Positions 9,423-54,294 of a stretch of 64,000 nt of DNA are shown in pieces (position 1 is the stretch's first letter; every line of letters begins with the position of its first letter). This DNA comes from an uncultured bacterium (lineage in GTDB: Bacteria; Hydrogenedentota; Hydrogenedentia; Hydrogenedentales; JAEUWI01): the NCBI GenBank assembly GCA_963977445.1, contig CAXBPH010000003.1, forward strand, positions 6,529 to 70,528. The letters run 5' to 3'. Under the pieces are notes generated by a model. That model had not been told where the DNA came from. It saw only the letters and a program-made list of their open reading frames with translations, and did not search any database. The translations under genes were made by a program, and so were the position numbers.

Positions 9423-12356
9423 TCAGCAGGCGGCGGCGCAGTCCTTTTTCACCTGTCCGATGGCACCGGCCAATTCTTCGGCAGGGGGCAGGTGCAGATA
9501 GACAAAGCCGTCGTTAACTTTTACGTCAAAGGTCGCCACCCGAAGGTTGTCGCCTGAGACGCAAGAGCCGTCTTCGAGAGAGAACTGTTTCTTATGCATG
9601 GGGCAGGCCACCTTCGGCACGCCCTCGTCGTCACCGAGTAATCCACGGGCAAGAACCATGTCTTGCTTGTGGGGACACATATTCTGGGTGGCATACCATT
9701 TATCTTCTTCGCCATAACGAAATACGGCTAACTGCACCCCGCCGTAGCTGACCGCCATGCCCCCCTCTTCCGGGAAGGTACCCACACGTCCGGCTTTCCA
9801 CCAGGACTGGGTCGACCATTCAAAGCCATCGGACGATTTCGCCACAACAGGCCAGTCCACGGGACGTTTCTGGTCGCGCTCTTCCACGTAGCCGATGGTG
9901 GGGTCAGCCTCATCAACGTTGGCAAAGTGCCGGAACAAGGCCCGTTTTTCTGGGTTATTCACCACTTCAGCCCATTCGCACTGGTAGGTATCCACCAGTC
10001 GGGCCATGTCGGCCTCCAGCACTTCGCACAATCCGAGCACATCGCCAATAACGACGTCTTTCAGATGGGCGACGCCACCTTCCAACTTTTCCAACCAGAC
10101 AGAAGTTCGCTGAAGGGGGTCGGCCGTCTGAATGTAATACATGAGAAAGCGGTCGATGTATTTAATGGCCGTTTCCGTGTCGATTTCCGAGGCAAACAAG
10201 TCGGCATGACGGGGTTTGGTACCGCCATTACCGCAGAGGTAAAGATTCCAGCCTTTGTCGGTGGCAATCAGGCCCACATCCTTGCACTGGGCCTCGGCAC
10301 ACTCTCGGACGCAGCCGGACACGGCAAACTTGAGCTTGTGGGGCGAGCGAATGCCGCGATAGCGCTCTTCGATCTCGACAGCGAAGGCGGTGGAGTCCTG
10401 GACGCCATACCGGCACCAGGTCTGGCCTACGCAACTCTTTACGGTACGCACCGACTTACCATAGGCATGACCACTTTCGAAGCCCGCCTCGATGAGCTCT
10501 TCCCAAATGTCAGGAAGCTGCTCCACCCGGGCTCCGAGGAGGTCTACACGCTGGCCGCCGGTAATCTTACAGTAGAGATCATATTTCTTTGCCACCTTAC
10601 CGATGACGATGAGTTTATCGGGGGTTATTTCCCCACCGGGAACGCGGGGTACGACCGAGTAGGTACCCCCTCGTTGGATATTGGCAAGATAACGATCATT
10701 GGTATCCTGAATGGTGGCGTGCTTCACAATGTGGTCATTCCAAAGACTCGCCAGGATGGAGGCCACCACGGGCTTGCAGACTTCGCAGCCCTCGCCGCCG
10801 GTGCCACACCCGGCGAGAATCATCCGAAAGTTTGTGAGCTTCTTCACCTTGACGCTATGGAACAATTCCTGACGACTCATGGGAAAATGGGAGCAGACTA
10901 CCTTCTTCACCACCACACCGGCCCGCTTGAACTCCTCGGCCATAATATCTTTCACCAGGGGAATGCAGCCACCGCAGCCCGTACCAGCGCAGGTAGCACT
11001 CTGCACATCGCCCAAATCACTGAGTTTGTGTTTCCGGATGGCGGTGCAAATTGCCCCTTTACTCACATTATTACAGGAGCAAACCTGGGCGTCATCGGGC
11101 AGAGATGCGGCGCCAGCAGCGCCGTCTCCCCCACTCCCCAGGAGCAGGGTCTTGGGTTCTCCCACAATGCCGTCGAGGCTTCGATAGGTGTGCAGCAATT
11201 TGGCGTAGTCGGAAGTATCCCCCACCAGAATGCCCCCAAGAATCTGGCGGCGGTCCTCGGAGAGAATTATTTTCTTATACACGCCACTGACCGTATCCTT
11301 CACCACCACCGTGTCACTCTTCGGGCCCTCCGTATCAATCGATCCCAGGCTCGCCACTTCCACACCCATCAACTTCAACTTGGTGGACATGTCCGCGCCG
11401 GTAAAGTGGGCCTCATGTCCCATGAGGTTTTCCGCCAGGGTGTCGGCCATCTGGTAACCCGGGCCCACCAAGCCGTAGATCATGCCACCGTGCAGGGCCA
11501 ACTCGCCGATAGCAAAAACGTTGGGATCATTGGTCTGCATCGTATCGTCCACGATGACACCACCCCGTTCGCCTACGGCCAATCCAGACTCCCGGGCCAG
11601 TTCATCCCGTGGTCGGATACCAGCAGAAATGATGAGCATGTCCGTGTCGAGTAAGACATCGTCCATAAAGGTGAGGCCCGTAATCGCGCCGTTCCCTTCG
11701 ATTCGTTTCGTTTGATGCTGAAGCAACACCTTCACGCCGAGGGCTTCAATTTCCCGAACCAACAACTTGGAACCTTCGTCGTCGAGCTGACGGGGCATGA
11801 GTCGCGGGGCGAACTCCACCACGTGTACATCCAACCCCAGGTCGACTACCGCCTTGGCCGCTTCCAGTCCCAAAAGTCCGCCACCAATTACGGTGGCCGT
11901 CTTCGAGTTTTTCGCATAGGCTCTTATGGCATCAAGGTCTTCAATGGTTCGATAGACGAATACGCCTTTTTTATCGACCCCGGCAATGGGCGGCACAAAA
12001 GGTGCCGAGCCCGTAGCAAGTACAAGATAGTCGTAGTGCTCGATGTCACCATCATCGGTAACGATGGTATGGGATTCCCGATCAATCGAAGCCACCCGCT
12101 GACTCGTGTGGAGGGTAACGTCGTTGGCTTCATACCACCCGAGACCATCCAACGTAAGATCTTCGATGGTGTTCGTTCCGAAGTAACTGGTGAGCTGGAC
12201 ACGGTCATAGGCCGGCCGAGGCTCTTCGCCATAAACGACAATATCGTAGTGACTCTTGCCATCGAGTTCTCGGAGTTTTTTGCAGAAACGATGCCCAACC
12301 ATTCCGTTCCCCACCACCACAACTTTCTTTCGAATTATTTCTACGGTTGCTGACAT
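9423..12356 (-). CDS. nirB: Assimilatory NAD(P)H-nitrite reductase, large subunit fused to a C-terminal NirD Rieske domain (NirBD fusion)
   Basis: N-terminal VVVVGNGMVGHRF FAD/NAD fold, BFD-like and nitrite/sulfite reductase siroheme-[4Fe-4S] regions, and a C-terminal CPHKQ...CPMH Rieske-type NirD domain. ORF track starts at 12434; I prefer the ATG at 12356 (MSATVEII). Confidence 0.85.
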   Translation of the reverse strand: MSATVEIIRKKVVVVGNGMVGHRFCKKLRELDGKSHYDIVVYGEEPRPAYDRVQLTSYFGTNTIEDLTLDGLGWYEANDVTLHTSQRVASIDRESHTIVTDDGDIEHYDYLVLATGSAPFVPPIAGVDKKGVFVYRTIEDLDAIRAYAKNSKTATVIGGGLLGLEAAKAVVDLGLDVHVVEFAPRLMPRQLDDEGSKLLVREIEALGVKVLLQHQTKRIEGNGAITGLTFMDDVLLDTDMLIISAGIRPRDELARESGLAVGERGGVIVDDTMQTNDPNVFAIGELALHGGMIYGLVGPGYQMADTLAENLMGHEAHFTGADMSTKLKLMGVEVASLGSIDTEGPKSDTVVVKDTVSGVYKKIILSEDRRQILGGILVGDTSDYAKLLHTYRSLDGIVGEPKTLLLGSGGDGAAGAASLPDDAQVCSCNNVSKGAICTAIRKHKLSDLGDVQSATCAGTGCGGCIPLVKDIMAEEFKRAGVVVKKVVCSHFPMSRQELFHSVKVKKLTNFRMILAGCGTGGEGCEVCKPVVASILASLWNDHIVKHATIQDTNDRYLANIQRGGTYSVVPRVPGGEITPDKLIVIGKVAKKYDLYCKITGGQRVDLLGARVEQLPDIWEELIEAGFESGHAYGKSVRTVKSCVGQTWCRYGVQDSTAFAVEIEERYRGIRSPHKLKFAVSGCVRECAEAQCKDVGLIATDKGWNLYLCGNGGTKPRHADLFASEIDTETAIKYIDRFLMYYIQTADPLQRTSVWLEKLEGGVAHLKDVVIGDVLGLCEVLEADMARLVDTYQCEWAEVVNNPEKRALFRHFANVDEADPTIGYVEERDQKRPVDWPVVAKSSDGFEWSTQSWWKAGRVGTFPEEGGMAVSYGGVQLAVFRYGEEDKWYATQNMCPHKQDMVLARGLLGDDEGVPKVACPMHKKQFSLEDGSCVSGDNLRVATFDVKVNDGFVYLHLPPAEELAGAIGQVKKDCAAAC

Positions 12357-12828
12357 GGTTTGAAGTTTTCCCGCCCAAGCGACTATGGAAAACACCGCAT
12401 TTCGCCTAAGAAAGCGTTTCGGTGATTTACCCATTCAGGAGATCTTCCGACATTTCCGTCATATCGGGATTTGATCGAGAAATGCAATTCTCGTGCCAAT
12501 GAGGCCACACGATTCCGGTTTGAGCTGTTTTCCTGGCTCTCGGAATGGGGCAGTTTGAAAACAATCCACATAAACTAAGGCGTTTACGCACAAAATATGC
12601 CAGTTCGCGCCCACCGGGCTTCCTGTCGAAGTCACTTCCTCTTGTATTTTGCAATGCTGCGGCCACCGCTAGCCGCCCAGTATCGTCGACAAAAAAACTA
12701 CATTTCCGTAGGCATAACTCAAAACCATAACCAATAGGTACTTTTAAAATCCCCCCACCTCAACGACAAGCAGCATGTGCCAGGAATACAAACTACGTGG
12801 TCCATTGTACGCAATCAAGTAACTTTTT

Positions 12829-12844
12829 ACGTATCTAGATACGT
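12829..12844. promoter_or_regulatory. Perfect 16-bp palindrome ACGTATCTAGATACGT in the divergent nirBD/narK promoter region
   Basis: Seen directly. It sits in the AT-rich 630-bp intergenic region between the nitrite reductase and the nitrate transporter. Confidence 0.3.
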
Positions 12845-13062
12845 GCTTCTACCCATATCAATAAAGAATATCACCCAATAAAACAAGCAATTTTCATGCA
12901 GATTATGCGCCCACCTTTCCGGTAGAAACCGTCGACCGATGACGACAATCGCTATCCGTTACCGGGGCGTCAAGGGGCATCCGGGGACCTATTACGCCTT
13001 TGGCACAGATTTCGCGTTCATAGAGAAAATTTCCTGGCCTCCCTTACTGAAAGGAATCCTCT

Positions 13063-14409
13063 GTGGATATCAAGCACAAAGCTACCCGGATCGAACTATT
13101 TAACTTTAGAACGGTCCAGATGCGAGCCTTCCATATGTCGTGGTTTGCTTTCTTTCTTTGCTTTTTTGCCTGGTTCGGCATTGCTCCCATGATGGTTATC
13201 GTGCGAGACGAATTGTCCCTCACGAAGGCACAGATCGGAAACACGATCATCGCGTCGGTCGCCATCACCATCATTGCGCGCCTGTTTATCGGGTGGCTCT
13301 GTGATCGCATCGGCCCCCGTTTAACCTACACGTGGTTACTCGTTTTCGCGTCGATTCCAGTTATGGGTATCGGGCTGGCCCAGAGTTACGAAACCTTTCT
13401 TCTCTTTCGTCTGGGAATTGGTGCCATCGGTGCCTCATTCGTTATTACCCAATACCACACATCCGTCATGTTTGCACCCAACTGTGTGGGAACGGCCAAT
13501 GCCACCACGGCCGGCTGGGGCAATCTTGGCGGTGGTGTTACGCAGATGGTCATGCCCCTGCTTTTCAGCACCCTGCTGGTCATCGGCCTGAGTGAATTCT
13601 GGGCGTGGCGAACGGCCATGGTTATCGCTGGCGTAGTTTGCATGCTTACGGGTGTCGCCTATTATTTTGTTACGCAGGATACGCCGGACGGCAACTTCAA
13701 GGACCTCCGTGAACGGGGCCTGATGAGCTCGGCGAAGGACAACAAAGGTGCCTTTCTGGAGGCGGCGAAAGACTATCGCGTCTGGGCTTTGTTTTTTGTC
13801 TATGGCGCGTGTTTCGGCGTAGAACTCACCATCAACAACGTCATCGCCCTCTACTACACGGATTACTTCGGCATGGGTATGAAGGCCGCCGGTGCGTTGG
13901 CTGCCTGCTTCGGTCTCATGAACTTATTTGCCCGCACCCTGGGTGGCTTCTTTGGCGACAAACTTGGCATCAAGTATGGCCTGAAAGGACGGGTCCACTG
14001 GCTCACCGTCGCCCTCTTCATCGAAGGTCTTGCCCTCATGCTCTTCTCGCAGATGACCTTCCTCCCCCTGGCCCTGGGCACCATGATCATTTTCAGCCTC
14101 TTCGTGCAGATGTCGGAAGGCGCAACCTTCTCAGTCGTTCCCTTCATCAACAAACGGGCCCTTGGCGCGGTAGCCGGCATTGTCGGTGCCGGTGGAAACT
14201 TTGGTGCCGTATGCGCGGGCTTCCTCTTCAAGTCCGGTGCCATCACCTGGCCCCAGGCGCTACTTATTCTGGGCGTCATGGTAACCCTCTGTTCTGGGCT
14301 TACCGTGTTCGTCCGTTTCAGCGAAGCCGACGAACGGGCTGCCGAAGCCGCAAATGAACTCGCTCGGGACATGGAAGACGGGGCTGTTGCGGAACCCGCA
14401 TCCGCCTAG
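13063..14409 (+). CDS. narK: Nitrate/nitrite transporter (MFS, NNP family NarK/NrtP)
   Basis: GWGNLGGG NNP signature and 12-TM hydrophobicity. The N-terminus RAFHMSWFAFFLCFFAWF resembles NrtP. GTG start with AAAGGA RBS. Confidence 0.85.
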   Translation: MDIKHKATRIELFNFRTVQMRAFHMSWFAFFLCFFAWFGIAPMMVIVRDELSLTKAQIGNTIIASVAITIIARLFIGWLCDRIGPRLTYTWLLVFASIPVMGIGLAQSYETFLLFRLGIGAIGASFVITQYHTSVMFAPNCVGTANATTAGWGNLGGGVTQMVMPLLFSTLLVIGLSEFWAWRTAMVIAGVVCMLTGVAYYFVTQDTPDGNFKDLRERGLMSSAKDNKGAFLEAAKDYRVWALFFVYGACFGVELTINNVIALYYTDYFGMGMKAAGALAACFGLMNLFARTLGGFFGDKLGIKYGLKGRVHWLTVALFIEGLALMLFSQMTFLPLALGTMIIFSLFVQMSEGATFSVVPFINKRALGAVAGIVGAGGNFGAVCAGFLFKSGAITWPQALLILGVMVTLCSGLTVFVRFSEADERAAEAANELARDMEDGAVAEPASA

Positions 14410-46233: not shown

Positions 46234-47043
46234 TTAGACGGCGTCGGAAACGATTTTCTTTCCGGTAACCGGGCAAACTTTGGCTTCACCTTCGGAAGAA
46301 GCGGCTTTGGCCTTGTCACACTCAGACTTGGCTTTGTCGCAGGTCTTGGCTTCGCCTTCGGAAGAAGCAGCCTTGGCCTTGTCACACTCAGCTTTCGCTT
46401 TGTCACAAGTCTTGGCTTCACCTTCGGAAGAAGCAGCCTTGGCCTTGTCACAAGCGGACTTGGGGCATTCGCCTTCAGAGGAAGCAGCCTTCGCTTTGTC
46501 ACAGGTCTTGGCTTCACCTTCAGAAGAAGCGGCTTTGGCCTTGTCACACTCAGACGTGGCTTTGTCACAGGTCTTGGCTTCGCCTTCGGAAGAAGCAGCC
46601 TTGGCCTTGTCACAGGTCTTGGCTTCACCTTCGGAAGAAGCGGCCTTCGCTTTATCGCACTGCTTCGCTTCACCTTCGGAGGAAGCAGCCTTGGCTACCT
46701 TCGTCTTGCAGCAGCTGGACGCTTCACCTTCAGAGGAAGCCGCCAACGCCTTATCGAAGGTCGCCTGCCGGTCGGCGATCAGCTTGGCTTTCTTTTCGCA
46801 TGGCTGAAAGGCATCTTCATTCGCTGCGGAAACCGTCTGCATGCCGAAGAAGGAGGCAACACTGTTCTTAGCACTCGTGATGGCGCAGGAACCTGATGCT
46901 CCGTTGTTCGCAACAACGCCAGCAGTCGCCACGCCGGATACGACGACCATAGCAGCAACGAAGGATGCCCATTTGCCTTTGTTACGTTTCGGTGCTTGAG
47001 CCGTTTCTTCGGTCACAAGCTCTTCCTGATGTTCTTCGTTCAT
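46234..47043 (-). CDS. Single-pass membrane protein with ~10 tandem 15-aa Cys/Lys/Ala-rich repeats (CDKAKAASSEGEAKT), function unknown
   Basis: Short cytoplasmic N-terminus, TM helix WASFVAAMVVVSGVATAGVVA, then the repeat array with ~17 Cys including C-x6-C and C-x4-C pairs. C-terminus VCPVTGKKIVSDAV. ATG at 47043 has GGAG 9 nt upstream. Shadow ORFs exist in the other frames. Confidence 0.55.
   Translation of the reverse strand: MNEEHQEELVTEETAQAPKRNKGKWASFVAAMVVVSGVATAGVVANNGASGSCAITSAKNSVASFFGMQTVSAANEDAFQPCEKKAKLIADRQATFDKALAASSEGEASSCCKTKVAKAASSEGEAKQCDKAKAASSEGEAKTCDKAKAASSEGEAKTCDKATSECDKAKAASSEGEAKTCDKAKAASSEGECPKSACDKAKAASSEGEAKTCDKAKAECDKAKAASSEGEAKTCDKAKSECDKAKAASSEGEAKVCPVTGKKIVSDAV
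46270..46745. repeat. ~10 tandem copies of a 45-bp coding repeat (with 12-21-bp insert variants)
   Basis: Near-identical units GCTTCACCTTCGGAAGAAGCGGCTTTGGCCTTGTCACA... are visible directly. The repeat is continuous and in frame, so it is not spacer/repeat organised like a CRISPR array. Confidence 0.8.
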
Positions 47044-47562
47044 TGAATATTGCTCCACAAGTGTTTAAATAAGTTACCCATGCAATCTACACGATAAACA
47101 TAGATTCAAAATTGACCCGATTTCATGTCAAAACCTGGAATTATTCGTAGGGTTCAGCATAACAAAAACTCCGCCACTTCGCAATCCTGTCGAAGCGCGC
47201 ATTTCCACGAACCCGAAAGAAATGAAAACAACCTAACCATCTCAATTTAAAGGCGTTACATAAAGTGTGTCTTTAACCCACAATCGCTGGAACGGCTACG
47301 TCGTCAGCTCACCAAGTTTCAATGCAGTGCAATTTGTCCGAAAAATCGCTGAAAACAGGTTGGTTGGCCGAGAACATTCATGAAATAACTGCCCCATAGG
47401 CCATGCCCCCACGAAGCCCCGACTCAACCGGTATTTTGCCGACTTCCGACGATGTTGCCGATGTTTTTGAGGAAGTGGTGGCGGAGTCTTGTGCGGGTGT
47501 CTTGGTGGCTTGGGTCGTTGTCGGTCATCGTCGGCTGCCTTTTAAGATTGCCGAAAAGGGGC

Positions 47563-47766
47563 CTACTCTGCGGGATGCGCAGCCGTGATCGCGACGGGCT
47601 CCGAGGCCTCGCGGCTCTTGCGCATGAGTTCCTGGTCGATCATGCCAAGTTCGGCGGCCAAACCGGCTGCGGCTACGGACAGGCAGGTTTCTTCCACTTC
47701 CGCCGCGTGGCGCATCCATTCGGGAAAAGGAAACGCATCACTTGTGCTATTCATATCCATGGTCAT
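47563..47766 (-). CDS. Small hypothetical protein (67 aa); its start overlaps the stop of the upstream GNAT-like gene by 4 nt
   Basis: ORF only. No motif recognised. The overlap suggests translational coupling. Confidence 0.3.
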   Translation of the reverse strand: MTMDMNSTSDAFPFPEWMRHAAEVEETCLSVAAAGLAAELGMIDQELMRKSREASEPVAITAAHPAE

Positions 47767-48329
47767 AGGTGCCTTTCCAGAATTCTCTCTGCATTGTCGC
47801 GCGAAAGTTCAAAGTACGTCAAGTTTTCGAAATCCACGTCAGGGCCCAACGGTGTCATCCAACACGCCCCTCCGTAGAAGGGTACGGACTGCGGCAAGGC
47901 ATGTAGGCCCACTCGACCTCCAAAGCCTTCGTCCCAGCTTTGCCGGACGGCGCGCTCGAACAGGTGGGGACCAATCAGGCCGTATTTTCGCGTTTGCCCG
48001 ATACCTGGAATGGTCCAGTTCCAAGGGGCGACTTCCAGGAAGTCTATATATACCAGCGGCTTGCCATGATCTTCGCCGAGTTGGGAGAAATGTGTCCCAG
48101 ACTTGGTCAGCATGGCACCCTGCCATTCGTCGTCACAGACCACGGCGAATCCAGATGCAGGAACCAGGCGCAGGTGCTGCGCCTTGGCCCGCCAGTTCCA
48201 GTTGAGGCTCTGGGGTCGCTCGGAATAGGGAAGACCCGCGCGGGCTATTTCGAGAAGGATGCGGGAGCGTTCTGGAGTCCACACCGATTCCAGTGTCAGC
48301 AGGTCTTCAGGCGCGACGAGGAGGGCCAA
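47763..48329 (-). CDS. GNAT-fold acyltransferase-like protein (tentative)
   Basis: 188 aa. VYIDFLEVAPWNW and EGFGGRVGLHAL weakly resemble GNAT motif regions. It sits between the low-GC acpS and the small ORF. Confidence 0.4.
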   Translation of the reverse strand: MALLVAPEDLLTLESVWTPERSRILLEIARAGLPYSERPQSLNWNWRAKAQHLRLVPASGFAVVCDDEWQGAMLTKSGTHFSQLGEDHGKPLVYIDFLEVAPWNWTIPGIGQTRKYGLIGPHLFERAVRQSWDEGFGGRVGLHALPQSVPFYGGACWMTPLGPDVDFENLTYFELSRDNAERILERHL

Positions 48330-48348: not shown

Positions 48349-48732
48349 CTACTCACCCGTTGCGATGGCACTGGCGAAAGCGATTCCGCTCGAATAGCTA
48401 ATACTCACATGCCAATCTAAGATACCGAGCTCATCAGAAAACTTTGCCACGTCATGATTTAGCCTTACATATGGAGCCCCGTTCTTCCCCCGAAGAATTT
48501 CTATTCCATGCCACGTTATTTTTCCAGAAAACCCAGTACCAAGAGCCTTTGCGATGGCCTCCTTTGCGGCGTATCTACCTGCATAGTAACGATAGTGGGC
48601 TGGGGGAGGGTCGGCGGCTTCTCGCTCGTCTATTGAGCAAAAGCAATTGACCCAGCTATTCGTACCTGAGTCAATTTCATTTCTTATACGTTGAATTCTT
48701 TCAATATCGATTCCGTGACCAATGATTCGCAT
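48349..48732 (-). CDS. acpS: Holo-[acyl-carrier-protein] synthase (4-prime-phosphopantetheinyl transferase, AcpS type), low GC and probably island-borne
   Basis: MRIIGHGIDIERIQRI...YAAKEAIAKALGTG...WHVSISYSSGIAFASAIA aligns along its whole length with the AcpS family. The gene is ~40-50% GC in a ~60% GC genome. Confidence 0.85.
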   Translation of the reverse strand: MRIIGHGIDIERIQRIRNEIDSGTNSWVNCFCSIDEREAADPPPAHYRYYAGRYAAKEAIAKALGTGFSGKITWHGIEILRGKNGAPYVRLNHDVAKFSDELGILDWHVSISYSSGIAFASAIATGE

Positions 48733-48740
48733 GCATCCCC

Positions 48741-50624
48741 CTATTTTATTTCTCGAACTACGATATCTCTCTTGTCAAGATCCAGGTCAACAGTTCCGCC
48801 TCCACGAGATTTCAACTCTCTCCAAACTTTGAAGCCCTGCAGGATAGCGCGTTCCCATTCTCCCGTTGTGCATGCTGACACCTCAAGATGAAGGACGGTA
48901 TTCTTTATCATTCGTAACAATTCACTACTGACCGACAATTTACCCTCTAGGAAGTTGTAGTCACGAGCGTAGGCAAAAATCATTGCCGATAGTGCCTCTT
49001 CCGTGACAATCGCCCTTGCACCATCTTCCACTTCGTCAACTTTCGGATCACTCTTTCGCTTCGCTGTGAACATTTTCCTGACGAGTGGAGACCAACCTAG
49101 AACCGCAGCGAAAGACAAATGGATTACATCGTGGAGTCCGTAACCATCGTTCTCGTAAGCGTTGTCAGTCAAGTCATCACCAAACTGCTGACCCTTGTAC
49201 ATCACCCGTATTTTTGGGTTGTTGAATTCGTCATGGTATGTGCTGAAATCGAGTGAAAAACTACGTGGAAATTGTTCATTTTCGGGATATCCTGCATCGA
49301 ACGGAGTTCGCGAAGGTAACGTGCCCCACCGTTCATCACATTTCGCCAAGTTAAGCTCGGCGATCTCCTTCAGATCGAGATTAAACTTCGTGGCGACGTT
49401 TGCCACATACCACAGCAAGTCTCCGAGTTCCTCGCTTAAGCGGTCCTTAAACAATTTATGCGTGTCACCGTCCCGAAGATATTTCTTGTATTCACTCAAC
49501 AATTCACCGGATTCGCTTGCGAGGCCCAACAGAGGAATCGTTAGCGAAGACTCGTCCACACCGGGATTTTGATCTGTCCCGGCAACTTTCTCTTGGTATT
49601 TGCCCATATCCATGGCTCTTGTCTCCAGGTTCACCCCCGTACTCGATCGATTTTCTTCGTTTGAGCTGGTACGGCTGATTAATTCGTTTATGCCCCACTT
49701 GGGTGGGTACCAATAGTCGATTGGTTCTAAAATAGGCTTCAGCTTCTGCTTTATGCGACTTCGCCCTGATTTTCCGACGAATTCTGGATGTACAACTCGC
49801 GCGTACTTGTCTACTTCACAAAACAGGTTTTGGCAATCAATCAATTGAAGCGGCCTTCCCCATAAGTCGGAAAAATCTATGCCCAGTCGATTAAATTCCT
49901 CATCCTGCCTCTCGGTCACCCACCGGATTATTTGTGCAGTATCCTTCTTTCCCGGGTTTAGAAAGCACTTCTGGATTCCATCGAGTGCTCCGGGGCCTGC
50001 GACCACAAAGTCCATTTCAGAGAAGTTAATGATGGTGCTGTAGTTCAAATCGGTAACATACTGATAGGCTAGAAAGTTGCCTATCCCAGGTGATGACCGC
50101 ATTGATTCGAACGCCTCTTCCATGGACTCCGAATCAGCAATTCGTTTCGGTAGCTCCGAAGACATCATGTATTCAAGTAACTTAAGATGGTTCTGGTGTT
50201 TGAATGTTAGCGAAAATTTTCGGACGGAGGGCATTATATAGGCTGCGGAATAGATCCGCTGGCCTCGCGTCATCGCCTGACTTAAGACACGGTCATATGC
50301 CTTGTATGAGTAATCGGCGTATGTGAGATGGCCAAGCTCATTCTCAAGTAGTTTCCATGTATCGATGCGATTGAAAAGTTTGAATAGAATTATGCGAAAA
50401 AACACTTCAGCTGGATGAGTCGGGAGGTCTTCGTTGTATATTACGTTCCTAATGAGATATTGGCTCACTCTGTCAGAGGCTCTGTAGGCGTTCGTGAATT
50501 TGTGGTTTTGAAGCACAGCGTCATCCGTCCACGGAAGAGGGCGCTTACTTATTCGTCGAAAGAAGATTCTCTGTCGCTCGGCGGCGAATTTCCAATACGT
50601 ATCGTATACAGGAGTAGTTTTCAT
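48741..50624 (-). CDS. 627-aa multidomain protein: N-terminal uncharacterised domain (possibly aGPT-pyrophosphorylase-like) plus a central MazG-like NTP pyrophosphohydrolase domain
   Basis: Central ESGELLSEYKK...EELGDLLWYVANVATKFNLDLKEIAELNLAKCDERW matches the MazG EExxE / ELGDxL motifs. The N-terminal 300 aa (MKTTPVYDTYWKFAAERQRIFFRR...PWTDDAVLQNHKFTNAYRASDRVSQYL) reminds me of nucleotide-base hypermodification-associated families, but I cannot verify that here. Confidence 0.6.
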   Translation of the reverse strand: MKTTPVYDTYWKFAAERQRIFFRRISKRPLPWTDDAVLQNHKFTNAYRASDRVSQYLIRNVIYNEDLPTHPAEVFFRIILFKLFNRIDTWKLLENELGHLTYADYSYKAYDRVLSQAMTRGQRIYSAAYIMPSVRKFSLTFKHQNHLKLLEYMMSSELPKRIADSESMEEAFESMRSSPGIGNFLAYQYVTDLNYSTIINFSEMDFVVAGPGALDGIQKCFLNPGKKDTAQIIRWVTERQDEEFNRLGIDFSDLWGRPLQLIDCQNLFCEVDKYARVVHPEFVGKSGRSRIKQKLKPILEPIDYWYPPKWGINELISRTSSNEENRSSTGVNLETRAMDMGKYQEKVAGTDQNPGVDESSLTIPLLGLASESGELLSEYKKYLRDGDTHKLFKDRLSEELGDLLWYVANVATKFNLDLKEIAELNLAKCDERWGTLPSRTPFDAGYPENEQFPRSFSLDFSTYHDEFNNPKIRVMYKGQQFGDDLTDNAYENDGYGLHDVIHLSFAAVLGWSPLVRKMFTAKRKSDPKVDEVEDGARAIVTEEALSAMIFAYARDYNFLEGKLSVSSELLRMIKNTVLHLEVSACTTGEWERAILQGFKVWRELKSRGGGTVDLDLDKRDIVVREIK

Positions 50625-50672: not shown

Positions 50673-51497
50673 CTAAAAATCGTCATGAATAGGCTCGGAA
50701 ACTGTGCTCGTCACAGATTTGCAAAGTATTTTGTTAGAGCGCGTGATCAAGTCACGTGCATTGCGTACCCCCCAAGGAAATTGTTTTGAATCCTTAATTC
50801 TGGCTGGGCCTTTATCAATTTCGGCATGTGTGGAGACACAGGTGAGCGAACCGACGGTTAGGCCAGCTCGCTCTGCCACAAACGCCTGAAGTTGCCCCAA
50901 ACCGATTAGATTGCCAAGGCACCGAGATATGTACGTGTGGTTACGGTACATTGCTGTAAGCATCAAGCCCTTGTTTGGATGACATTTAAAGCTCAAAAAA
51001 CTGAGGCATTGTCCCCCCCATCGACTACGCCCATCCTCCAAGGGATCGTAAACCGCTAGCTCATATGCCGACTTGAACTTCTGACCACCATTCTCGCGTT
51101 CTTGTAGCTTACCGATCAGCTGTTCTAGTGGATTGTATGTCTTGCCGAGCCTAGTCTGATGCCTGGTCATTCGCTCAAAGTACCTACCCCAGCGCCGGGT
51201 CTTCGTCAGTCTATCGAACGCTTCATGGTATTTCTCGTAGAACACCGGAGCCCCGTGCTGATTGTAGAGTGATTGGGGAAAAATCGTGTTACAGACCGTG
51301 GATATGGGGTAGCAATCGTACTTTCGTAGAAAATCGTCTACCTCTGAAATGATTTCATTGTCAGTTGAATCGAACGATACGGGATTTTCTACATCAACAA
51401 TAACGTTGTATCCCTCATCATTGTGCTTCATGATCTCCATTGCAGCCGCTACCCACGCTCGCGCACAACTCTTCTGTGTCGGGATGGCGATGTACAT
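50673..51497 (-). CDS. Thymidylate-synthase-fold enzyme (ThyA / dCMP-dUMP hydroxymethylase superfamily, divergent)
   Basis: GGQCLSFLSFKCHPNKGLMLTAMYRNHTYISRCLGNLIGLGQLQAFVAERAGLTVGSLTCVSTHAEID aligns with the ThyA core PCHAFFQFYV...[21 protein letters not shown]...VGDFVWTGGDTHLY. QCL sits at the position of the catalytic PCH. Confidence 0.55.
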   Translation of the reverse strand: MYIAIPTQKSCARAWVAAAMEIMKHNDEGYNVIVDVENPVSFDSTDNEIISEVDDFLRKYDCYPISTVCNTIFPQSLYNQHGAPVFYEKYHEAFDRLTKTRRWGRYFERMTRHQTRLGKTYNPLEQLIGKLQERENGGQKFKSAYELAVYDPLEDGRSRWGGQCLSFLSFKCHPNKGLMLTAMYRNHTYISRCLGNLIGLGQLQAFVAERAGLTVGSLTCVSTHAEIDKGPARIKDSKQFPWGVRNARDLITRSNKILCKSVTSTVSEPIHDDF

Positions 51498-51509: not shown

Positions 51510-52157
51510 CTAATGCGTAATAAATGCGGAAAAGATTCGCGACCCGAGATAACGTTTGCTCAACCAGGCGTAGCCATGAAGGCCCCAGGATTCACCCCAA
51601 CTGTTTCTGATAGCGATATACTTTTCGCTGTTTTTCGTAGCTGTTGCGACGGCAACAACAGCGTGTCGTCGAACCGGGTCGATAGGCTCAGTTGAATCAA
51701 CGATTCCAACGTTGTCCGGGGTATAGAACGCATCTGAGAACGACATCGCGAGGACGACGGGCTTGTCGGTTTGGATGCAGTCCCAAACGGCGTCAAATGT
51801 GGCGGTTAAGGCGCTAGTATGGCATTGGAAAAGTTGCCCTACGTTGTTGGGAGGCTTCCAGTGCGAAATTGGGCTTGGCAATGCCTTGAGGTAGGGCCAG
51901 GCGAGTTCGTTCGGTTGCCCGTCCCCAGTTAATGCAGAGCATACCCCCGGAATGGAAACACCCAAATCTGGAGAGCTTCTCTCCCACTTTATCGCGTAGT
52001 AGTATAGGTACTCACACGACAAGGGTTGCCAATTCCTCTCCAGTGCGGCGGAATGTGCGTCGCTCGTGGCGAACGCCAGGCATGTCGGGCGCGCTCCTTG
52101 ATCGCGAGCGCTGCCAAAATATGGTCGTAGGTCGTGACGGATAATCATCGAACTCAT
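51510..52157 (-). CDS. Papain-like cysteine peptidase (C1A-like, compact, no pro-region)
   Basis: QGARPTCLAFA matches the QG-x-C-G-S-C-W-A-F spacing of the catalytic Cys. HAVVAVA matches the His region. NSWGESWGLHGYAWL matches papain NSWG..WG..GY. Confidence 0.7.
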   Translation of the reverse strand: MSSMIIRHDLRPYFGSARDQGARPTCLAFATSDAHSAALERNWQPLSCEYLYYYAIKWERSSPDLGVSIPGVCSALTGDGQPNELAWPYLKALPSPISHWKPPNNVGQLFQCHTSALTATFDAVWDCIQTDKPVVLAMSFSDAFYTPDNVGIVDSTEPIDPVRRHAVVAVATATKNSEKYIAIRNSWGESWGLHGYAWLSKRYLGSRIFSAFITH

Positions 52158-53167
52158 GGGCGACTCAACATTGCTTGGCGTTGAGCTGGCAGGAGGCCGG
52201 TTTGTAGTGGTCCTGTCAAGTTTACATCAAATTCGAGCGACTGTAGAGATTCATCATCTGAGAGCCATGGTCGCTGTTCACGAAGATTCACGTGACCGAG
52301 TGCCGACTGCTCCGGTTCAGCCACGATCTTACGTTCGACAATACTACCGATTGCATTTTCAGTCGAGCGGGCCTCTCGGATGTCCTCAACTATTTTGAGG
52401 CCGACTTTGGAGAGACTGTCAAACGACCACATGTACCCTGATGAAGCGTGTTCGATCAGCTCGAGAATCACGATGTCGTGCGCGCTTCCTTCAATTAGGA
52501 GCCTTTGATCGCCCATGCCAAGCACCCATATATCCGCATACCATGATTCTGGGGTGTGCTGTTTGGTGAGCTGCTGCTTGATAGATTTTGGTTGGGTTTT
52601 GAGCAGGGAGTCTCGTACTGATTTCGAAATCGCATTGTGCTTGAGGAGCGCATGACAAGTCGCCGCATAGCTTGACCCCATCCGTAAGGCCAATTGGTAG
52701 ACTATTTTCGGAGACGTTAGGTCTGAGCTCGCCCACCCTTGTTGACCCATGTGGTGCGTGATTAGCCATTTCGGTGTAAGCAGTTCGGAGGCAAACGCAT
52801 TTGCCTGCAGTTCTATGAGATCAAGAGCTGCCCCGCTCTCAAACGGAGTTCGGTTTAGCCTGGATTCGTCATCTAGACTAGACGAGTGCCCCATGACCGC
52901 GTGACCCAATTCGTGTGCTGCCGTGAAGCGCTGTACGGAAAGGGGGCGTTGTGTGGTCAACAGAACTCCAGATCCATTTTCTTCCAAATAGCATCCGAGC
53001 AGCCCCTTCATCGGTTGGAACATGACAGGTATGTCGAGAGCTGCGAGAAGTCCAAACACATCGATGCGTCCCACCCCACTCTTTACCTTTTTTTTGACAC
53101 CATGGCTAGCATGTAATCGGTTAGCAGCAAGAGCCGCCTCGAGTATAGCCTTACGAACGTCTGGCAT
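52154..53167 (-). CDS. ImmA/IrrE-family zinc metallopeptidase (COG2856) with a ~190-aa C-terminal domain of unknown function
   Basis: HEXXH in AAHELGHAVMGH, preceded by the typical ImmA helix. Its start overlaps the C1 peptidase gene by 4 nt. Confidence 0.75.
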   Translation of the reverse strand: MPDVRKAILEAALAANRLHASHGVKKKVKSGVGRIDVFGLLAALDIPVMFQPMKGLLGCYLEENGSGVLLTTQRPLSVQRFTAAHELGHAVMGHSSSLDDESRLNRTPFESGAALDLIELQANAFASELLTPKWLITHHMGQQGWASSDLTSPKIVYQLALRMGSSYAATCHALLKHNAISKSVRDSLLKTQPKSIKQQLTKQHTPESWYADIWVLGMGDQRLLIEGSAHDIVILELIEHASSGYMWSFDSLSKVGLKIVEDIREARSTENAIGSIVERKIVAEPEQSALGHVNLREQRPWLSDDESLQSLEFDVNLTGPLQTGLLPAQRQAMLSRP

Positions 53168-53170
53168 AGG

Positions 53171-53551
53171 TCAGCCCCCTTTTTGCGCTTTCCTCGATTT
53201 CAAGAATTCTGCGAATCTGGCGAGTTCGCTGCGATCTTCCGGGGCCAATTCAGATACCTGCCGTGCCAGATGAGCGACTTCCTTGTCAACTGGATGCGTG
53301 TCAGCGGTTTCACCGGTAAAAAAGTTCAGAGACCTCCCGTAGAGTTCGGCTAATTTCTTGAGTTCAAACACTTCAACTTTCCTCAGCCCTGCTTCCATCA
53401 AAGATAGCGCGGAACGAGAAGTACCTACTTTCGTGGCTATTTCGTTCTGGGAGAATCCAACATACTCTCGGGCTTCACGTAGCCGGTCACCAAGTACCTT
53501 TCTATCGCTATCACCTTCAACTTTTTTATTGTTGGGAGCTCTACTACTCAT
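53171..53551 (-). CDS. XRE-family (Cro/C1-type) helix-turn-helix transcriptional regulator
   Basis: LGDRLREAREYVGFSQNEIATKVGTSRSALSLMEAG is the HTH_3 motif. The ATG at 53551 overlaps the stop of the upstream ACP-like gene in an ATGA arrangement. Confidence 0.8.
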   Translation of the reverse strand: MSSRAPNNKKVEGDSDRKVLGDRLREAREYVGFSQNEIATKVGTSRSALSLMEAGLRKVEVFELKKLAELYGRSLNFFTGETADTHPVDKEVAHLARQVSELAPEDRSELARFAEFLKSRKAQKGG

Positions 53552-53868
53552 TTGCTTCCCTTTCTTTTTTCCTCTTCTTGGCACAATTTATCTATACGCA
53601 GCATCATATCGTCAATTGCTTCATCAACACTTTGATAGCCGCCTTTTCGTATAGTCTTGTCTGGAGGTAGTCGAAAACCAACGATTGGCTCGATGGCTAA
53701 CAAAGTGCTTACGACGGCAAAGGAGTCCAAAAGTGGCTCCCAAACCTTGCGCAACAGAGCCCCCTCATCCACAATCTCGTCAAGCTTGTCAGTCAAAACT
53801 GCCCGAATTTCGCAAGAAGTCAAATGAACATCTTCGTCGATTTGAAACGCTGTGGATGTGTTTGCCAT
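53548..53868 (-). CDS. Acyl-carrier-protein-like (phosphopantetheine-binding) small protein
   Basis: LLDSFAVVSTLLAIEPIVGFRLPPDKTI...SVDEAIDDMMLRI parallels ACP helix II/III (DSLDTVELVMALEE...FGIEIPDE...TVGDLVDYI), with Ser in DSF at the 4-prime-PP attachment position. Confidence 0.55.
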   Translation of the reverse strand: MANTSTAFQIDEDVHLTSCEIRAVLTDKLDEIVDEGALLRKVWEPLLDSFAVVSTLLAIEPIVGFRLPPDKTIRKGGYQSVDEAIDDMMLRIDKLCQEEEKRKGSK

Positions 53869-53935: not shown

Positions 53936-53958
53936 ATATGTTAGATTTTCTAACATAT
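53936..53958. promoter_or_regulatory. Perfect palindrome ATATGTTAGA-TTT-TCTAACATAT upstream of the island operon; candidate XRE-repressor operator
   Basis: 10-bp arms seen directly, ~70 nt upstream of the ACP-like gene start. A second long dyad (TATAGCCCAGGG...CCCTGGGCTATA) lies at 53961-54024. Confidence 0.45.
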
Positions 53959-54059
53959 GGTATAGCCCAGGGTTTTGCTTGTTCGCGCTTGGGGCGTGAA
54001 CTTGCTGCGCCCTGGGCTATAGTGTGTCACCCCGTTGGGGCTATTCAGATCGCCCTGTA

Positions 54060-54294
54060 CGGATTCGCCGAAGAATGACACTTCGCCCGAAGTGGGCGCC
54101 AGCAACCCCATGAGCACCTTGATGGTCGTGCTCTTACCCGCGCCATTGGGCCCGAGAAGGCCGAAGGCGGCCCCACGCTTTATTTGGAGATTGAGGCCGT
54201 GGACACCATCTCCGTGTTCGTAGGTTTTTACGAGTTCTGAGATTTCGACCACCGACTCGGTCTTCACCGGGGCCTGTTTATCCATAACCTGCAC
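54060..54294 (-). pseudogene. N-terminal fragment of an ABC transporter ATP-binding protein (Walker A GPNGAGKST) with nonsense readthrough after ~78 aa
   Basis: ORF 53950..54294. Homology is recognisable only to ...SGEVSFFGESV; the remaining 35 aa are unrelated junk before the stop. The break coincides with the island boundary. Confidence 0.5.

Follow-up and report, generated by a model that had tools for sequence, protein, structure and literature searches.

The thymidylate synthase (TS) fold was long thought to be limited to folate-dependent one-carbon transfer, and two domains that recur in this analysis, HMUDK_hel and MazG_C, are ones that Iyer 2013 and Burroughs 2015 are said to have defined. 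A branch of the TS superfamily that departed from the classical folate chemistry, the flavin-dependent 5-hydroxy-dCMP synthases, was described only in 2025-2026 (PMC13326640), and 5-HMUDK enzymes phosphorylate 5-hydroxymethyldeoxyuridine (5-hmdU) in DNA (PMC8989533). In Escherichia coli the system DS-4 ("NTTI"), predicted by DefensePredictor (Science 2026), consists of a TS, a deoxynucleoside monophosphate (dNMP) kinase, an HMUDK_hel protein, a TIR protein and Nmad2, and its protection against phage was validated; DefensePredictor also lists unvalidated systems with MazG, MazG-C ("predicted kinase"), dUTPase, aGPT-Pplase and UDG (PMC13092281). The present analysis concerns a window of 64,000 nucleotides of contig CAXBPH010000003.1 (assembly GCA_963977445.1) from an uncultured bacterium of the Hydrogenedentes, and within it a gene for a TS-fold enzyme of 274 amino acids (TS-like protein; positions 50673..51497, minus strand, an ATG-to-stop open reading frame, ORF) that lies in a cassette of regulators, proteases and nucleotide-metabolism enzymes. 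With a probability of about 50%, the TS-like protein is an active nucleotide-modifying effector of an acquired, repressor-controlled cassette that is most likely anti-phage.

The cassette is thematically related to DS-4, as both encode a TS-superfamily enzyme and an HMUDK_hel protein in one operon, by adjacent genes in the case of the window cassette. The HMUDK_hel part of the cassette is homologous to gene 3 of DS-4 (29% identity, E 7e-29), whereas the TS of DS-4 is a canonical PF00303 member with, by eye, Asp at residue 143 (E. coli ThyA numbering) and QRSGD, and its similarity to the TS-like protein is not significant (BLASTP E 0.95). The dNMP kinase, TIR and Nmad2 of DS-4 were found neither in the window cassette nor in the related loci examined and, conversely, DS-4 lacks MazG/MazG_C, CapH/CapP, the C1 protease, the chagasin domain, the acyl-carrier-protein (ACP)-like protein and AcpS. 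The head of the cassette, an XRE-family helix-turn-helix (HTH) repressor followed by an M78/ImmA peptidase, is organized like the CapH/CapP modules of cyclic-oligonucleotide-based anti-phage signalling systems (CBASS) and other defence operons. It differs from these modules in that a chagasin (I42) domain is attached to the peptidase and the next gene encodes a papain-like protease, and from CBASS in that the effectors are nucleotide-metabolism enzymes rather than CD-NTase systems. The themes of the cassette, namely nucleotide modification, MazG and recognition of 5-hydroxymethyluracil (5-hmU), were predicted bioinformatically, and with other genes combined (DS-4) they have just been shown to be protective in E. 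coli.

The TS-like ORF is a real gene and not a chance ORF. It begins at the N-terminus that is conserved among the homologues (MY..IPTQ.SCARAW), and at E<=1e-3 the protein matches 1738 clusters (90% identity), the best of which, its own cluster aside, reach E about 1e-105 and about 60% identity. A family profile compared with 1.84 billion representatives (50% identity) returned 1272 matches at E<=1e-3, of which 866 reach E<=1e-10. Residue conservation was counted in an alignment of 51 family sequences that reaches down to 33% identity. The earlier note on this DNA, which was made from the sequence alone, had drawn attention to Q-C-L in place of the catalytic P-C-H motif of ThyA; the motif is real and conserved throughout the family (Q163 in 48/51, C164 in 51/51 and L165 in 50/51 sequences). 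The invariant positions include Cys164, Arg185, Asn196, WGRYFER (103-109) and N70-x-I-F-P74, and furthermore E146, D155, K171, Y184, H187, Y189 and S222-T223. Overall, more than 25 residues are invariant across sequences that are only 33% identical, a degree of conservation that points to an active enzyme.

The decisive evidence on the gene is its genomic context, which the earlier note had missed, and the real interest of the locus lies in the cassette. The TS-like gene is the fifth of eight tightly packed minus-strand genes that are separated by 3-48 nt or overlap by 4 nt. A scan of 185,579 species genomes (one genome per species) revealed a patchy distribution of the TS-like cassette with 61 loci in Planctomycetota, Gemmatimonadota, Acidobacteriota, Nitrospirota, Armatimonadota and many Alphaproteobacteria (Bradyrhizobium, Bosea and Inquilinus among them), one copy being located on a Devosia plasmid. 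The order HTH, M78/I42, C1, TS-like is conserved in 55 of the 61 loci, the exceptions being contig ends and one rearrangement, and the C1 peptidase gene is located directly upstream of the TS-like gene in 55/61 loci. MazG/MazG_C is encoded nearby in 57/61 loci (fused, split or convergent), a dCTP-deaminase-like gene (DCD) is present in 16/61, and HMUDK_hel is linked in the cassette variants examined except for the Devosia variant. On the Devosia plasmid (L050, 9828-10511 minus and 11844-14036 plus) a weak UDG-like protein (E 0.004) is encoded between the TS-like gene and MazG/MazG_C, and a gene for a 730-aa metallophosphatase adjoins the UDG-like and MazG/MazG_C genes. One metagenomic protein (P0262, 674 aa) combines M78, TS-like, MazG and partial MazG_C sequences in a single chain and is either a true fusion or what is left of a cassette that collapsed or degraded. 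A literature search found no paper on the TS-like family or on the cassette.

The cassette also behaves as a genomic island. Its GC content is 0.43-0.53 compared with 0.58-0.65 in the flanks, and two relatives with a 97% identical RarA contain no cassette protein; at the same spot, between a repeat-protein gene and rarA, they carry about 2 kb of unrelated BNR-repeat genes. The cassette was horizontally acquired in the Hydrogenedentes host, which, to judge by its RarA, is a marine Candidatus Hydrogenedentes bacterium. In other genomes its neighbours include BREX (L001), a type I restriction-modification (RM) system (L002), a serine recombinase (L004) and a HEPN protein with an integrase (L021). 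The nearest large ORF on each side of 56 loci was sampled (98 ORFs in all), and strong PADLOC matches among these flanking ORFs were Mad3 (3), type IIG RM (2), type I RM (2-4), BrxL (2), GajA, JetA, AbiEii, IetA and PDC-S21. The result is a cassette with a gene order conserved across many phyla that resides in defence islands and is yet absent from PADLOC.

An origin of the cassette from a prophage was considered and rejected. Homologues of the TS-like protein were absent from 50,697 phage records (tblastn), and the island contains no replication or structural genes. The same results bear on the idea that the cassette is a DNA hypermodification module that protects the DNA of a mobile element or of the host (epigenetic or anti-restriction) rather than an abortive or poisoning defence. 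Such a module would fit the mobility of the cassette, the descent of HMUDK_hel from enzymes that modify 5-hmdU in DNA (PMC8989533) and the logic by which phages make modified DNA, namely a TS homologue together with a pyrophosphatase and a kinase-like domain (PMC13326640). It is, however, unlikely, given the lack of a phage homologue and of replication or structural genes in the island, the absence from the window of a cognate modification-dependent or modification-sensitive nuclease, and the CapH/CapP-type control and protease-inhibitor pair, which fit a toxic, conditional effector better.

The assignment of the TS-like protein to the TS fold, already proposed in the earlier note, was borne out by structure prediction, Foldseek and a broadened profile alignment. 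An AlphaFold2 model based on 26 homologues (predicted local distance difference test, pLDDT, 86; predicted TM-score, pTM, 0.87) shows the characteristic alpha/beta TS fold, in which the secondary-structure elements, from helix H to strand vi, follow one another as they do in ThyA. Foldseek searches against the PDB and against viral models agree on this fold, and the next, unrelated fold in the comparison scores 4.7. A long extra helix at residues 44-59 is absent in ThyA. The relationship is much harder to recognize from sequence. E. coli ThyA gave no match to the TS-like ORF (tblastn, E<=1), no TS was found in the PDB by phmmer with the TS-like protein or by hmmsearch with a narrow 26-sequence profile, and hhalign of the narrow profile with E. 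coli ThyA returned a probability of 2%. Homology to TS appeared only when the family was broadened with sequences from the genome loci. Aligned with eight TS homologues taken from annotated records (E. coli ThyA, T4 gp42, the T-even-type (Mosigvirus) td of phage PTK, and the ViI-like, M6-like, Molly, EFDG1 and Slicko01 enzymes), the broadened profile places residues 99-225 on ThyA 86-208 (hhalign, probability 92%, E 5.7e-7), and a forced global alignment reaches a probability of 93%. The earlier claim that the C-terminal ~70 amino acids align convincingly with ThyA therefore fails in pairwise comparison (tblastn) and survives as a homology in the broadened profile; judged from these alignments, the sequence link to ThyA is weaker than implied yet real.

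Domain models agree with this distance. The closest NCBIfam model is TIGR03283, an archaeal TS (E 1.7e-10), which the TS-like protein matches with 40.8 bits compared with a cutoff of 174.55 bits. There is no Pfam match at E<=0.01, so that the gathering score of PF00303 is not reached, and neither PADLOC nor PHROGs contains a match. Among ten relatives that were compared with PF00303, only P0104 passes, and does so marginally (25.7 vs 24.3 bits), while the others remain below.

The residues at the centre of covalent catalysis in ThyA (EC 2.1.1.45, PF00303) are retained in the TS-like family. The nucleophile C146, at the start of strand iv, corresponds to Cys164 and the phosphate-binding R166 to Arg185, both invariant (51/51) and both placed by local as well as global hhalign; N177 corresponds to Asn196 (51/51), Y94 to the invariant Tyr106 and H207 to His224 (40/51). 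The nucleophilic Cys is thus kept in its altered Q-C-L context. Other active-site positions are replaced: S167 by Asn186 (50/51), the pterin contact D169 by T188, which is variable (Tyr 30, Thr 8, His 5 and Ala 4 of 51), Y209 by the variable E226, L143 by G161 (Gly 26, Asn 24 and Asp 1 of 51) and H147 by L165 (50/51). The R-S-x-D motif of ThyA accordingly reads R185-N186-H187-T188, without the equivalents of S167 and D169. The equivalents of W80 and W83 are not conserved as Trp. Two assignments are tentative: the general acid/base E58 falls on the invariant Asn70 in the forced global hhalign only, outside the local alignment, and R21 falls on Val or Ile at position 36, in the less reliable N-terminal part. 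In the loop that corresponds to R126/R127, basic residues are only semi-conserved: Arg occupies position 139 in 23/51 sequences, and Arg or Lys is found at position 142 in 38/51. The earlier note had made its reading depend on the nucleotide-binding arginines and the nucleophilic Cys; the Cys and the R166-type Arg are present, whereas R21 appears to have no equivalent and the R126'/R127' pair is not conserved. The missing phosphate-binding arginines might be replaced by the invariant R105 and R109.

These substitutions also bear on whether the protein is simply an ordinary, merely divergent housekeeping thymidylate synthase. Some homologues carry the name "thymidylate synthase" in JGI records and the closest NCBIfam model is an archaeal TS family, but the score lies far below the cutoff of that model, no Pfam match was obtained, universal TS residues are missing, the gene is part of a low-GC island that close relatives lack, and the family is always accompanied by regulators, proteases and MazG and is found in only 61 of the 185,579 species genomes. 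A housekeeping role is extremely improbable in view of these observations and housekeeping ThyA was rejected, as the earlier note had anticipated; its statement that no DHFR/folA or thyX partner is adjacent also holds, and no thyA adjoins the gene either. Compared with ThyA, the TS-like protein has Q-C-L instead of P-C-H, its own WGRYFER motif, the extra helix at 44-59 and no DHFR neighbour.

Substrate and product can be judged from rules published for the TS superfamily: Asn177 denotes dUMP and Asp177 dCMP as the substrate, a hydrophobic residue 143 goes with a methyl product and Asp or Glu with a hydroxymethyl product, and D169N is a mark of the flavin-dependent 5-hydroxylase (PMC13326640). 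With Asn196 at the N177 position, the TS-like protein would be uracil-type, which speaks against the substrates used by gp42 and MilA (dCMP or CMP) and would exclude their cytosine-type specificity. At position 161 it has Gly or Asn, neither the bulky, water-excluding hydrophobic residue of the methyl-forming enzymes nor the acidic residue of the hydroxymethylases, and the hydroxylase signature D169N + N177D is absent, as position 188 is Tyr, Thr, His or Ala in 47/51 sequences and position 196 is always Asn. By the published rules, the protein would therefore fit none of the three known product classes.

This result modifies the earlier reading, in which the divergent pattern was considered typical of pyrimidine hydroxymethylases: a non-canonical TS-fold enzyme it is, but a hydroxymethylase signature is lacking. 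The pyrimidine hydroxymethylases (T4 gp42, MilA and the ViI-/M6-type dUMP enzymes) are likewise non-housekeeping and are partnered with a nucleotide pyrophosphatase and with 5-hmU-processing functions. All eight reference enzymes, however, keep E58, Y94, R126, C146, R166, S167, D169, H207 and Y209, and the four of hydroxymethylase type (T4 gp42, ViI-like, M6-like and Molly) all have Asp143, whereas the TS-like protein lacks Asp143, S167, D169, Y209 and (tentatively) E58 and is encoded by a bacterial, chromosomal gene. As the residues of folate-dependent TS and hydroxymethylases are missing together with Asp at 143, hydroxymethylation can be put forward only as an analogy. A one-carbon or other donor may not bind in the classical manner since the folate-handling residues are replaced, and the loss of these residues brings a different chemistry well into play. 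With the core of covalent catalysis kept and the folate residues dropped, the TS-like family (about 1,270 clusters at 50% identity) is a candidate for new chemistry.

One form that such chemistry could take is a folate-independent reaction on the same fold, in which Cys164 activates C5 of a uracil nucleotide and the activated position undergoes flavin/O2 hydroxylation or capture by the phosphopantetheine thiol of a carrier protein. This is possible, if on the unlikely side. A switch from folate to flavin has already been shown within the TS superfamily (PMC13326640), D169 and tentatively E58 are replaced, the equivalents of W80/W83 are not conserved as Trp, and the cassette is accompanied by a dedicated AcpS and by a carrier-like protein whose Ser49 is invariant. 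The known flavin-dependent 5-hydroxy-dCMP synthases (AfhB of phage HY126, PDB 9iqc, and RB69 gp48) share a compact TS fold and a similar size with the TS-like protein, but they are phage-encoded, act on dCMP and carry D169N + N177D, substitutions that are absent here (Tyr, Thr, His or Ala at 188 and Asn at 196). Furthermore, the ACP-like assignment comes from a single weak profile alignment (probability 70%) and has no Pfam match beside it, and AcpS is present in only 19/61 loci.

The replaced residues would also be compatible with a protein that does not turn over at all but acts as a sensor or trap, binding a pyrimidine nucleotide that arrives with the infection (for example a phage 5-modified dNMP), perhaps covalently via Cys164, and thereby controlling the proteases or MazG. 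To our knowledge there is no precedent for a TS-fold sensor, and the more than 25 invariant residues, including the new WGRYFER motif, are typical of an enzyme active site; a sensor is for these reasons highly unlikely even though the TS-like gene always adjoins the C1 protease gene and proton-relay and folate residues have been lost. E58-type mutants of classical TS accumulate the covalent intermediate (Huang and Santi 1994, as cited in PMC13326640), a behaviour that Asn at the E58 position would recall, but the mapping of E58 is of low confidence as it comes from the forced global alignment only.

An active effector of an anti-phage cassette remains the preferred reading. The analysis shows the TS fold, the conserved catalytic core and an operon that is widely conserved and behaves as an island; beyond this, the following course of events is proposed. 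An infection or DNA-damage signal would cause the CapP-like M78 protease to cleave the CapH-like repressor, by which the operon would be derepressed. MazG, aided by DCD where present, would convert dCTP or dUTP into monophosphates, and Cys164 of the TS-like enzyme would attack C6 of dUMP and a substituent would be installed at C5. This group would most likely be of the hydroxymethyl type because of the HMUDK_hel partner and the analogy to DS-4. Either dUMP would be diverted from dTMP synthesis or a non-canonical nucleotide would be made, and the HMUDK_hel-MazG-MazG_C protein would act on this nucleotide, either as such or as part of DNA. Phage replication would be blocked, with pool depletion or DNA poisoning as the outcome. 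A second layer of control, proteolytic in nature, is probably provided by the papain-like protease together with the chagasin domain.

Several points weigh against this scheme. The residues S167, D169, Y209 and (tentatively) E58, kept by every reference enzyme, are missing in the TS-like family, the equivalent of position 143 is Gly or Asn and not the Asp of the hydroxymethylases, and the apparent loss of R21 and the lack of a conserved R126'/R127' pair make the mode of nucleotide binding putative. A simple model does not account for the ACP-like protein, AcpS and the C1 protease, DCD is absent from the 64-kb window and the Devosia-type variant lacks HMUDK_hel. No core cassette protein matches any PADLOC model (the capH and capP matches of the two regulators are given with their genes). 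Roughly one in seven of the sampled flanking ORFs is defence-like, which is well above the genome-wide share, although this comparison has no formal baseline.

The other enzymes of the cassette look active, judged from their conserved catalytic residues. The repressor gene (53171..53584, minus strand) encodes a CapH-like XRE-family HTH protein (Pfam HTH_31 and HTH_3; PADLOC capH, 3.5e-15) and its translation probably begins at the ATG at 53551, which forms an ATGA overlap with the stop codon upstream. A perfect 9-bp inverted repeat, ATATGTTAG-N5-CTAACATAT (53936..53958), was read from the sequence 67 nt upstream of the first gene and is a plausible candidate operator for this repressor. A scan for promoters and terminators returned sites that were no more numerous than in shuffled sequence. 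The next gene (52154..53167, minus strand) encodes a CapP-like M78/ImmA metallopeptidase (PF06114, 9.2e-11; PADLOC capP, 4.7e-16) with a C-terminal chagasin-type (I42) domain. H85, E86 and H89 of its HEXXH motif are shared by at least 95% of 55 homologues, the chagasin domain is of the type that inhibits C1 peptidases and matches PF09394 at 5.8e-5, below the cutoff of that model, and the two-domain architecture is also found in loci L001 and L004. The papain-like (C1) cysteine peptidase that follows (51510..52157, minus strand, 215 aa; PF00112, 1.7e-11) has an intact catalytic set, with Q20, C26, H165, N185 and W187 conserved in at least 95% of 57 homologues. The M78-linked chagasin domain and the papain-like peptidase of the next gene resemble a built-in protease-inhibitor pair, which is kept in 55/61 loci.

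Downstream of the TS-like gene, a fusion protein of 627 aa (48741..50624, minus strand) contains HMUDK_hel (PF18723, 2.5e-114), MazG (PF03819, 5.4e-6) and MazG_C (PF18722, 8.3e-70). The acidic motifs of its MazG part are invariant, and a MazG/MazG_C profile built from the fusion protein and five homologues matches DCTPP1-type MazG structures. It is followed by a gene for an AcpS-type 4'-phosphopantetheinyl transferase (48349..48732, minus strand, 127 aa; PF01648, 2.9e-16; TIGR00556, 72 bits, above the cutoff), whose residues D9, E58 and K62 recur in at least 95% of 17 homologues. The operon ends with a 188-aa ORF (47763..48329, minus strand) of doubtful cassette membership: its GC content is host-like (0.56-0.58), Pfam, PADLOC and NCBIfam contain no match, and a homologue was found neither in any other cassette locus nor in the close relatives.

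The first gene of the cassette (53548..53868, minus strand) encodes a putative acyl-carrier-like protein of 106 aa with a conserved Asp48 and an invariant Ser49 that is followed by a helix. The protein is conserved upstream of the HTH gene, and among 39 distinct aligned sequences Ser49 is present in 39 and Asp48 in 37. An hhalign comparison places Ser49 on Ser36 of E. coli ACP, the site of phosphopantetheine attachment (probability 70%, E 4e-5). No Pfam match was found, a large protein search with the 106-aa protein returned only itself, a single-sequence AlphaFold2 model was unusable (pLDDT 56), and the cassette loci contain no bona fide acpP gene from which a better ACP profile could be built. 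In 19/61 loci an AcpS gene is located downstream or divergently upstream of the cassette, and the placement of Ser49 and the cassette AcpS, taken together, suggest that the two proteins are a carrier protein and its transferase. A carrier protein with its own transferase is unexpected in a nucleotide-centred cassette.

This pair allows a more speculative version of the cassette chemistry, in which the TS-fold enzyme would activate a uracil nucleotide via Cys164 independently of folate, and a phosphopantetheinyl carrier made by AcpS would either trap the C5 intermediate with its thiol or supply it with a group. Either a conjugate of protein and nucleotide or a new hypermodified base would result, with two proteolytic switches in control (M78 acting on the repressor and chagasin on the papain-like protease). 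Such a coupling is doubtful on present evidence; if true, it would constitute a defence chemistry that has not yet been described. The cassette offers two hypotheses of regulation, one built on the protease-inhibitor pair and the other on the carrier protein and the phosphopantetheinyl transferase that goes with it.

Further observations concern the boundaries of the cassette and the surroundings of rarA. A 114-aa ORF (53950-54294, minus strand) starts like an ABC-transporter ATPase (Walker A GPNGAGKST) and breaks off at the cassette boundary, where a 28-nt imperfect inverted repeat (53961-54021) is also located. The island boundaries yielded neither a tRNA nor an integrase, nor any convincing direct repeats. 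The region upstream of rarA shows no nucleotide similarity to the close relatives. At the other side, one edge of the variable region is marked by a gene for a tandem 'KAKAASSEGEAKTCD'-like repeat protein (46234-47058, minus strand), and 'KAKAASSEGEAKTCD'-like repeat proteins with other repeat numbers are encoded in the relatives L073 (7052-7975) and L074 (3784-4641). The rarA neighbourhood looks like a hotspot for variable genes. L074 also carries a BrnT/BrnA toxin-antitoxin pair directly downstream of rarA.

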